From a virus (lineage: Duplodnaviria > Heunggongvirae > Uroviricota > Caudoviricetes), in IMG/VR virus record IMGVR_UViG_2703718786_000008: 28,315 nucleotides of DNA, one strand, 5' to 3'. The position numbers were made by a program. Shown here one piece after another: positions 3,001 through 6,000 of this stretch (the stretch's first letter is position 1; each line of letters starts with the position of its first letter).

Positions 3001-6000
3001 AATGCAGAAGCAACTGGAAGGAGCACAGGAATATATCCGTACCCAGTGTATACCGTGATGTTTTGTTATGAAGGTGTTACTGGTAACGTTAAGGTAATTT
3101 AACAAAGAGTCAGTTCCGGACTTTATAGTGTGCTCAGTTCATGGACAAAAACGATTTCTGTGATAAATATTTTGAATATTATTTACAGGTAAATGGAGTG
3201 GGGCGCATGGATAGAAATATTACAATAGAGTATGAAGTATATGCCCGTATTGTATGGGCAGAGAAGGCAAAAACACGGTAATTCCGTGTGTTGCCATGAT
3301 ACCTGATTGGCAGAATAGTTGTTTGGTTTTGAGTATATAGTCAGCGTTTTTTGTTCAGTAATTGCCCCCTCAAAAAATAATAAAATAAGGTGATTATTTT
3401 TGTTTATTATTTAGTTTTTTTTGTGTGTTATTTTATTGTTTTTGCGTGGTTTGTTTTTTATTGTTATTTCATTAAGGGAAGGTAAATTCAGGATGGCAGT
3501 CTGTAGATAATCGGAGGTCACTTATGCTACATGATCACGTGGCAGAATGTCTGGAGAAAAAAGGACTGTACCGGAGAGCAGCTGAACGATGGGCAAAAGT
3601 GATGGTACAGCTAAGTGATGACCAGAAAAGAAAAGTGGCGGCACAGAAACGAGCAGAGTGTTTGCGTAAGGCGCGCCGGACTCCGGTTTCACCGGTGAAC
3701 CTGACCGAAATAAAACAAGCGGTCAACAGACTACATTCTGAGTTGGGAATGGGATTTGAAGAGCGGCGGGTATTCCGACGATATAAAGGGACAGGAGAAC
3801 AGAATACGTCCGGAAACGCGCGGTCAAAAAAATGCTAAAAAATATCTGAGAGCGTTATTGCCTGTTACCATAAGAAAAAGCGACTTTAGTGGTCGCTTTT
3901 TGTGTCATATATAAGTCGTTTAAGTAAACCTGTCTGAACAGGTGCTCTGGTCGTGTTTGTCTTTGTTGGGTACAAATTGAGCATGTTTTTCATTAATTAA
4001 TCTTCTTCTGCAGGCTTCAATAACCCACGCTGAAAAATTACCTGAACCTTTCTGATCAAGAGCGATGTTAATTTGTTCAATCATTTGGTTAGGAAAGCGG
4101 ATGTTGCGGGTTGTTGTTCTGCGGGTTCTGTTCTTCGTTGACATGAGGTTGCCCCGTATTCAGTGTCGCTGATTTGTATTGTCTGAAGTTGTTTTTACGT
4201 TAAGTTGACGCAGATCAATTAATACGATACCTGCGTCATAATTGATTATTTGACGTGGTTTGATGGCGTAGATGCACGTTGTGACATGTAGATGATAATT
4301 ATTATCATTTTGCGGGTCCTTTCCGGCGATCCGACAGGTTACGGGGCGGCGACCTCGCGGGTTTTCGCTATTTATGAAAATTTTCCGGGAACCATGTCCG
4401 GTTTCTCTGCAAGTTAACTACATGAAAAATATAAGAACGGGCTTTCCGTGAACCGGACATGCGCAAAAAATGGACATATAAACCGGACATGATCGGTTTT
4501 GTGCTAATTGTGAGGTGAGAGTTTTTGCGAGGTGAGGAGTGGCTACGCAGACTGAAGTTGCCAGGCATTTAAGTCTGACCGATCGCCAGCTTCGCAGATT
4601 GCAGAAATTGCCGGGTGCCCCGATATCAAATAAGCGAGGGCAACTGGATCTGGATGCCTGGCGCGATTTTTACATATCGTATCTGAGGAGAAGTAAAAAC
4701 GATGTGCCTGATGGCGATAGCGAAGACGACTATGAGGAGAAATTGCTTATTGCCAGATGGGAACTGACAGCAGAACAGGCTGTTACACAGCAGCTAAAAA
4801 ATGAGGTGTCAAAAGGAAAACTGATTGACACCGGATTCTGTATTTTTGCCCTCAGTAAGATGGCAATGGCGTTATCCAGTACGCTTGATTCCATCCCTTT
4901 ATCCATGCAGCGACAGTTTCCTGATTTAACACCGCGCCATCTTGACCATCTGAAAACCCTTATTGCGAAGGGGGCAAATCAGTGTGCGCGGGCGGGGGAT
5001 AAATTACCGGATTTACTCGATGAATATATCAGAGCAACAACTGAATAATATGATGAGCGCTGTCACAACAGCATTACAGCCCCTGATAAGGGCATTGCCG
5101 GTGACGCCAGTTGAATGGGCTGATCAAAATTATTATCTGCCGAAAGAATCTTCATATGGTGAGGGAGAATGGAAAACGCTGCCATTCCAGATCGCCATTA
5201 TGAACTGTATGGGTAACGACCAGGTTCGCACGGTTAACCTGATTAAATCTGCCCGTGTTGGCTATACAAAGATGTTGCTGGGGGTGGTCGGGTATTTTAT
5301 TGAGCATAAATCCCGAAACAGTCTGCTTTTTCAGCCCACGGATTCTGCCGCTGAAGATTTTATGAAGTCTCACGTGGAGGCGACGATTCGGAACGTGCCA
5401 TGCCTGAAAGACCTTTCCCCATGGCTGGGTCGTAAACATCGTGACAATACTCTCACGCTGAAACGCTTTTCATCGGGCGTCGGTTTCTGGTGCCTGGGCG
5501 GCGCTGCCGCCAAAAACTACCGTGAAAAATCCGTGGACGTGGTCTGCTATGACGAACTTTCCTCGTTCGAGCCGGATGTCGAAAAAGAGGGCTCGCCAAC
5601 CCTGCTGGGGGATAAGCGTATTGAGGGGTCGGTGTGGCCAAAATCCATTCGCGGCTCGACGCCTAAAATCAAAGGCACCTGCCAGATCGAAAAAGCCGCT
5701 AACGAGTCGGCACACTTCATGCGTTTTTATGTGCCCTGTCCGCACTGTGGGGAGGAGCAGTATCTGAAATTTGGCGATGATGCCTCGCCTTTCGGTCTTA
5801 AGTGGGAGAAGAATAAGCCAGAAAGTGTTTTCTACCTTTGTGAGCATCATGGCTGTGTGATCCATCAGTCTGAGCTTGACCAGAGTAACGGGCGGTGGAT
5901 CTGTGAAAACACGGGCATGTGGACCCGTGACGGTCTGACGTTTTTCAGCGCCCGGGGTGATGAAATTCCGCCGCCGCGCTCCATCACGTTCCATATCTGG

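Follow-up and report, generated by a model that had tools for sequence, protein, structure and literature searches.

A group-1 pch virulence-regulator gene and its AT-rich leader between the lysis genes and cos of a lambdoid Escherichia coli prophage

The stretch of DNA analysed here (hereafter the window) comprises 28,315 nucleotides of a virus of the Caudoviricetes (IMG/VR record IMGVR_UViG_2703718786_000008). Between its lysis genes and its cos site lies an open reading frame (ORF) for a small basic protein, preceded by a long AT-rich leader and followed by a terminator. An initial annotation, made by reading the sequence alone, had placed a 104-residue basic protein at 3524-3838 in this interval, and we found its coordinates, charge and position to be correct. 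We refer to the leader and the coding sequence (CDS) together as the pch module, which, with its signals, consists of the following features.

3059-3523, plus strand: pch leader, AT-rich and non-coding, 465 bp, expected to hold the pch promoter or promoters and the 5′ untranslated region (UTR).
3491-3572, plus strand: predicted hairpin around the Shine-Dalgarno (SD) sequence, from folding of the mRNA.
3524-3838, plus strand: pch ORF with an ATG start, 104 amino acids (104 codons, 315 nt).
3875-3901, both strands: bidirectional intrinsic terminator, A5-GCGAC...GTCGC-T5, closing pch on the plus strand and ylcI on the minus strand.

What is the gene at 3524-3838? Its SD sequence, GGAGG, occupies 3513-3517, with the ATG 6 nt further on, and its product is strongly basic (isoelectric point 10.3; 25 lysine and arginine residues versus 12 aspartate and glutamate residues). 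Three lines of evidence identify it. First, the protein matches the Pfam PerC profile (PF06069) with an E-value of 3.8e-44 and a score of 149.3 bits (cut-off 22.6), residues 1-89 aligning with profile positions 1-89 of 90. The PerC motif AE.LE..GL[YW]RRAA.RW..V, followed by a conserved cysteine, is present, and in an alignment of 53 PerC members (26-44% identical to PchA, with one member at 77%) the window protein has all of the invariant residues (R17, A19 and W23) and all of those conserved in at least 90% of members (A7, L10, E11, G14, R18, A20, R22, V26 and C46). Second, the CDS is identical at 315 of 315 nucleotides to pchA of E. coli O157:H7 Sakai (ECs_1091, prophage Sp4). Third, the group-1 genes pchA, pchB and pchC are reported to differ in their CDS only at positions 16, 172 and 183 (PMC5931665), and the window CDS has the pchA state at each of the three. 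Because of this identity and of the states at these positions, the gene is the pchA allele and not merely a "PerC-like" gene; the initial annotation, which had suggested a resemblance to PerC-family (Pch-like) activators, thus understated the case. The identical protein of strain EC12 is WP_001303878.1, named a "PerC family transcriptional regulator" by RefSeq/PGAP, and the exact PchA sequence occurs on at least 1000 contigs under the UniRef name "PchABC family transcriptional regulator". For annotation, the practical value of these results is that the gene can be named as a pchA/B/C-type (group 1) gene instead of by its family alone.

We then considered how the module is distributed among hosts, using as a query the leader plus CDS (3060-3838) against 5,426 complete E. 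coli genomes. The module was found at full length in 673 genomes, in 1,880-1,881 copies, with a median of three and a maximum of five copies per genome; 648 of the 688 records with the module were at least 99% identical to the query, and megablast and sensitive blastn agreed on the distribution. The leader was always found together with the CDS and, because the module was recovered as a full-length unit, we conclude that leader and gene travel together. The annotated feature beneath the match was a PerC family regulator in all 80 of the matches listed; neither a lack of formal similarity to the family nor a general absence or frameshift of the ORF in related prophages was encountered. The most divergent full-length copy, that of O157:H16 strain 98-3133, is 96.5% identical; its CDS differs from that of the window at exactly positions 16, 172 and 183, and its leader differs at approximately 5% of positions.

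The association with ler, the regulator gene of the LEE (locus of enterocyte effacement), is close. Using ler of Sakai as a query, and deriving co-occurrence from a chimeric pch-plus-ler query by inclusion-exclusion, we found ler in 697 genomes, with one copy in each, and either pch or ler in 699. Both were present in 671 genomes, corresponding to 99.7% of the pch carriers (671/673) and 96% of the ler carriers. When ler was appended to the query, exactly one more matching place appeared in 40 of the 40 genomes listed; in EC12 the number rose from two to three. The EC12 prophage matches the window at more than 99.9% of positions (1 of 10,300 and 6 of 9,962 compared positions differ). Since EC12 carries ler together with two copies of the pch module, the second elsewhere in the chromosome, the host of the window was very probably LEE-positive and a carrier of two pch copies. 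That 671 of the 673 module carriers also have ler confirms a very close link between the pch cargo and the LEE pathotype.

The claim that the prophage encodes a LEE-type activator is further supported by experiments on the identical protein: plasmid-expressed PchA raised the activity of a ler-lacZ fusion in K-12 from approximately 1,577 to 9,087 Miller units, or about six-fold (PMC5931665), and in enterohaemorrhagic E. coli (EHEC), LEE expression and adherence reach their full level only with pchA, pchB and pchC. Might the window gene instead be one of the PerC-family members that do not activate the LEE, of the PchD, PchE or K-12 YfdN type, with another target such as curli or flagella, or with no clear role? 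The family is certainly broad: a word-indexed protein search yielded close relatives only (at least 70% identity), and an exhaustive HMMER search, needed to reach the diversity of the family, gave 82 cluster representatives at E-values of 1e-3 or below, those aligned being 26-44% identical to PchA, and PchD and PchE have hardly any activating effect on ler (PMC5931665, PMC6265319). However, the window CDS is identical to pchA and not just similar to it, so that the nucleotide identity already refutes a non-LEE assignment; blastn with the window query at 65-70% sensitivity returned no pchD- or pchE-like sequences, which sets the groups clearly apart; and the module accompanies ler in nearly every genome that carries it. 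We therefore regard a non-LEE role as extremely improbable. We are highly confident that the window gene is the pchA allele of group-1 pch, present with its native leader as accessory cargo (a "moron") in a lambdoid prophage of a LEE-positive E. coli, and nothing that we found contradicts the identification as pchA.

The position of the module within the prophage is defined by the following neighbouring features.

2591-3058, plus strand: Rz spanin gene (Pfam Phage_lysis, E-value 2e-46; "lysis protein" in EC12), which also adjoins pchA in Sakai Sp4.
2811-2996, plus strand: Rz1, embedded in Rz.
3920-4144, minus strand: gene of the ylcI/ynfO family (Pfam DUF3950, E-value 9.7e-20; NCBIfam YlcI_YnfO_N).
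4344-4355, plus strand: cosN, a 12-nt cohesive end of the lambda type, exact GGGCGGCGACCT.
4539-5048: Nu1, after cosN, with the large terminase subunit next; EC12 has terminase annotations here.

Rz is the last gene of the lysis cassette and forms the left edge of the pch module. The order Rz, 465-bp gap and pch is common to the window, Sakai Sp4 and the O157:H16 copy, and ylcI follows pch in the window and in the O157:H16 copy. The terminator at 3875-3901 has a predicted stability of -14.7 kcal/mol (z = -4.4) on the plus strand and -11.9 kcal/mol (z = -3.5) on the minus strand, and is identical in all three aligned copies; the terminator downstream of the Sakai gene is likewise identical. When the region 3000-4300 was used as a query, lambda-like phage records matched only window positions 4010-4300 (query positions 1011-1301), that is, from inside ylcI onward, and no record in the phage collection carries the pch module. 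On these grounds, we consider the module to be accessory cargo that occupies the Rz-cos slot. No Rfam family matched the whole window at gathering scores, or the region 2900-4600 at E-values of 1 or below. Upstream of this region, a minus-strand ORF of 87 amino acids (1179-1442) breaks the otherwise plus-strand lysis cassette, with the holin/YdfR-like genes on one side of it and the lysozyme gene on the other; it has a full-length match to phrog_18136 (E-value 9.5e-55) and is annotated as hypothetical in EC12.

The pch gene is not the only cargo of this prophage. The suggestion that several host-interaction genes are carried also held, in that the window encodes Lom and, after the tail-fibre genes, in a region of 25-32% GC, the following pair.

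26350-26826, plus strand: tetratricopeptide repeat (TPR) protein, annotated by PGAP as a type III secretion chaperone of the SycD/LcrH family.
26839-27591, plus strand: ORF of 250 amino acids with no Pfam or PHROG match, which may encode an effector.

In EC12, IS911 and a 5′-truncated nleC lie directly beyond the position at which the window ends. A single phage thus brings together a regulator with a chaperone for type III secretion and, in EC12, the remnant of an effector gene, and through pch the prophage belongs to the circuitry by which attaching-and-effacing E. coli controls virulence.

What kind of sequence precedes the gene? The initial annotation had read the roughly 460 bp upstream of the ORF as a very AT-rich region with phased A and T tracts, the signature of a curved, H-NS-silenced promoter. 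The AT-richness is beyond doubt: the leader has a GC content of 33.3%, where the window as a whole has 53.2%; the value falls to 24.8% in 3340-3480, and reaches its lowest for any 150 bp of the window (23.3%) in a segment that starts at 3327, inside the leader. The leader is also well conserved, differing from the region upstream of Sakai pchA at 6 of 465 positions (approximately 98.7% identity). Support for the phasing was weak. There are 13 A or T tracts of at least 4 nt in the leader, nine of them in 3320-3480; for the latter segment, dinucleotide-preserving shuffles have a mean of 8.2 and 42% of them reach nine, so that the tracts are no more numerous than expected from composition. The spectrum has no power at 10-10.5 bp, and its sole peak, a weak one at approximately 11.5 bp, is attained by approximately 0.4% of shuffles at that period and by 1.6-4% when the maximum over 10-11.5 bp is taken. 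As for bending, in a rough wedge-model estimate the maxima in the leader (near 3190, 3270, 3370 and 3430) stand at the 97th-98th percentile of the window, high without being among its top peaks. The two highest modelled bends of the window, of approximately 50 degrees over ±31 bp, lie outside the leader, at 1418 inside the 87-amino-acid minus-strand ORF and at 3976 near the 3′ end of ylcI, past the pch terminator.

Of the proposed H-NS signature, then, the AT-richness stood, the modelled curvature is considerable but not extreme, and motif enrichment was not found. The high-affinity H-NS motif TCGATAAATT has a single match in the leader, with two mismatches, and its 24 matches in the window, where 19 were expected, show no enrichment; the consensus of integration host factor (IHF) is likewise not enriched, and neither motif has an exact match in the leader. 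In the literature searched there was no direct report of H-NS binding or silencing at a pch promoter, and the paper on Pch and H-NS by chromatin immunoprecipitation on microarrays (ChIP-chip; PMC4764244), with its supplements, contains no data for the pch locus. Nevertheless, because H-NS preferentially binds AT-rich acquired DNA in general (PMC4764244) and no part of the window exceeds the leader in AT content, it is plausible that H-NS occupies and silences the pch leader. The composition might instead reflect a long U-rich 5′ UTR, a region for binding of activators and the usual low GC content of cargo, rather than a curved silencer that specifically nucleates H-NS. The tract count at the dinucleotide expectation, the absence of phasing at 10-10.5 bp, curvature below the window maximum, the lone imperfect H-NS motif and the published regulators of pchA, which are activators and a small RNA (sRNA), all favour such an explanation. 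On the other hand, some 150 bp at 23-25% GC is the kind of DNA that H-NS coats, and the weak 11.5-bp periodicity is present. We consider it quite possible, if short of probable, that the leader is AT-rich for these other reasons; in any case, a long, low-GC 5′ UTR and an H-NS-bound silencer do not exclude each other.

The leader contains one further candidate gene, an ORF of 46 amino acids (3141-3281, plus strand), which has no family match and is unannotated by PGAP/RefSeq. By manual reading, five of six clustered substitutions in the O157:H16 copy are nonsynonymous within it, and we treated it as probably non-coding. On the minus strand, a terminator-like hairpin with a U run (3273-3289; -14.8 kcal/mol, z = -3.9) lies approximately 90 nt downstream of a weak sigma-70-like site (3377-3406). 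The hairpin has no Rfam match, and the O157:H16 copy breaks one of its stem pairs; judging from the sequence, hairpin and site could mark a small divergent RNA.

How, then, might the gene be expressed? The leader would be the gene's own co-inherited control region. It contains weak sigma-70-like sites at 3142-3171 and 3291-3319 on the plus strand. No plus-strand terminator was predicted between Rz and pch; therefore, Q-antiterminated transcription of the late operon should read into pch after induction of the prophage. Such read-through would fit the reported induction of the group-1 pch genes, taken collectively, by an SOS-inducing antibiotic (PMC5931665). Reviews and recent papers also describe LrhA, NtrC and, with butyrate, Lrp/LeuO as transcriptional inputs on pchA. 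At the level of translation, the pchA SD sequence is reported to pair with an anti-SD sequence in the early CDS until the sRNA DicF binds (reviewed in PMC7769764 and PMC7873438). In the window, the predicted fold pairs the SD region (3511-3518) with 3547-3554, in codons 8-11, and has an outer stem of 3496-3502 with 3563-3569; the minimum free energy structure is identical to the centroid, at -22.9 kcal/mol, and the SD sequence has an unpaired probability of 0.21-0.45 across five folding windows. In the O157:H16 copy, a change of G3496 to A converts a G-U pair of this hairpin into an A-U pair. The predicted hairpin fits a sequestration of the published kind. If it operates in the window, the SD sequence would be locked by the anti-SD sequence and opened by DicF. 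For DicF and pchA, RNAduplex gave -47.8 kcal/mol against -40.5 ± 3.0 kcal/mol for shuffles, in a long-looped and unrealistic pairing that does not place the DicF site.

Several of these observations are weak points in our reading of the regulation. The sigma-70 scan found five sites where 3.8 were expected, which is not above chance, so that the pch promoter cannot be placed from it; the literature searched yielded nothing usable on a promoter or transcription start of pchA; the SD hairpin, with z = -1.76, is only modestly more stable than shuffled sequences; and the mechanisms of DicF and LrhA are cited here second-hand. Moreover, in O157 strain PA20 the three pch copies are very unequally expressed, with pchA the lowest after treatment with sulfamethoxazole-trimethoprim (SMX-TM) (PMC5931665).

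For the action of the protein, as for the activation of ler and the regulators named above, we rely on the literature on the identical protein. [quoted passage not shown] PchA, a small basic helical protein, associates with the LEE1 promoter and lowers the occupancy of the H-NS/StpA/Hha silencing complex there, allowing ler to be transcribed; Ler in turn activates the remainder of the type III secretion island, the LEE, together with effector genes outside it.

In comparing PchA with other families, we noted a distant similarity to the ANR (AraC negative regulator) proteins, which bind AraC-type activators, H-NS and Ler (PMC4983702, PMC10148876). PchA itself is not an ANR member, reaching only 13.6 bits (E-value 0.046) with the NCBIfam ANR model (NF033650), whose cut-off is 32. 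The similarity is nevertheless reciprocal, though sub-threshold. The ANR model matches 49 of the 53 aligned PerC sequences, all of them Pfam-confirmed, at E-values of 1 or below, with a best E-value of 5e-7. Conversely, in an alignment of 27 ANR members, built after Rnr (the ANR of enteropathogenic E. coli (EPEC) E2348/69) had been located in the genome through a published primer sequence, PerC is the Pfam family that most members match (5 of 27, best E-value 6.8e-4). An hhalign comparison of the two families gave 60% probability and an E-value of 8.5e-5 over 55 columns, pairing PchA residues 5-59 (window 3524-3700) with Rnr residues 19-73, with a score of 31 against 16 for a reversed-sequence control. 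Reversed decoys gave no matches at E-values of 0.01 or below, where 37 of 53 real sequences matched in one direction and 10 of 27 in the other. Both families display the pattern A..xE..G.Y..A...W...(A/V), followed by R..(E)xC. The AlphaFold model of PchA (mean predicted local distance difference test score 82) has helices at 5-13, 16-29, 33-50 and 61-73, then a low-confidence basic tail, and PchA has no PDB sequence match and no structural match at an E-value below 1. From these profile comparisons, it appears likely that PerC and ANR belong to one superfamily. No paper linking the two families was found in the literature searched, and this relationship is the sole element of our analysis that may be new.

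Does this kinship bear on the mechanism? Pch might act mainly through protein contact with regulators of the H-NS or AraC family, as the ANR proteins Aar and Rnr do, and not through DNA binding of its own. In addition to the reciprocal similarity, the predicted structure, a three-helix module followed by one more helix and a basic, disordered tail but no helix-turn-helix, would accord with this, as would the binding of H-NS and Ler by ANR proteins. However, PchA neither co-precipitated H-NS nor bound Ler (Fukui et al., unpublished observations, PMC4764244), Pch affects H-NS at virulence loci only (Fukui et al., PMC4764244) and is itself found on DNA at many loci, and the LEE is repressed by ANRs and activated by Pch. 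Because of the failure of PchA to co-precipitate H-NS or to bind Ler, action through protein contacts is doubtful, and we judge it unlikely to be the main mode. A milder version, in which the N-terminal three-helix module of PerC/Pch is a diverged ANR relative, LEE1 is de-silenced partly via contacts with H-NS/StpA/Hha or AraC-type regulators instead of a DNA-binding fold of its own, and the basic tail supplies non-specific affinity for DNA, is only slightly less so and is offered as a tentative speculation.

These features can be set against those of known systems. Like PerC, the members of the ANR family (Aar of enteroaggregative E. coli (EAEC), Rnr of EPEC and Citrobacter) are small, helical proteins that regulate virulence regulons in enteric pathogens; PerC proteins have an extra helix and a basic tail and, where Pch activates, ANRs repress by binding AraC-type activators, H-NS and Ler. 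PerC of typical EPEC, compared here by description, belongs to the same Pfam family, has the same LEE1/ler target and is proposed to act by H-NS de-repression (PMC4764244), but it is borne on the pEAF plasmid in an operon (perABC) with the AraC-type PerA, and the LEE needs it under particular conditions only (PMC4764244). PchD and PchE of O157 and YfdN of the K-12 element CPS-53 (groups 2 and 3) share the family and a prophage or prophage-like location, but ler responds to them weakly or not at all, and they are too divergent for the window DNA query in blastn; PchE represses csgD and curli (PMC6265319). The PerC-family gene of plasmid pDEC5B-4 (O55:H7 strain DEC5B; 3029-3343 of the retrieved stretch) likewise encodes 104 amino acids, with 78% protein identity to PchA, and its DNA is approximately 80% identical through the CDS, from a point a little before the SD sequence, approximately 27 nt upstream of the start codon. 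It adjoins genes for an EspG-domain protein and an NleG effector, with insertion sequence (IS) remnants at the flanks, and has neither the AT-rich leader nor the phage context. In lambda and DLP12, the bor moron is also host-interaction cargo between Rz and cos; bor is an unrelated serum-resistance lipoprotein gene on the opposite strand. The closest counterpart is Sakai Sp4, where pchA (paralogues PchB and PchC) has the same CDS and terminator, with Rz 465 bp upstream, in a lambdoid prophage. In Sp4, the segment from the lysis genes to pch is inverted with respect to the terminase genes, with annotated IS629 and ISEc8 elements nearby, whereas in the window the late genes form one collinear, unbroken series that extends from lysis to the tail fibre. 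In EC12, the strain with two module copies, the near-identical prophage adjoins a 5′-truncated ydfJ at its right end (within 500000-516000). The gene and its locus in the window are thus those of a virulence regulator that is already known and has been characterised by experiment, found where it usually lies in a prophage and in the kind of host that it usually has.

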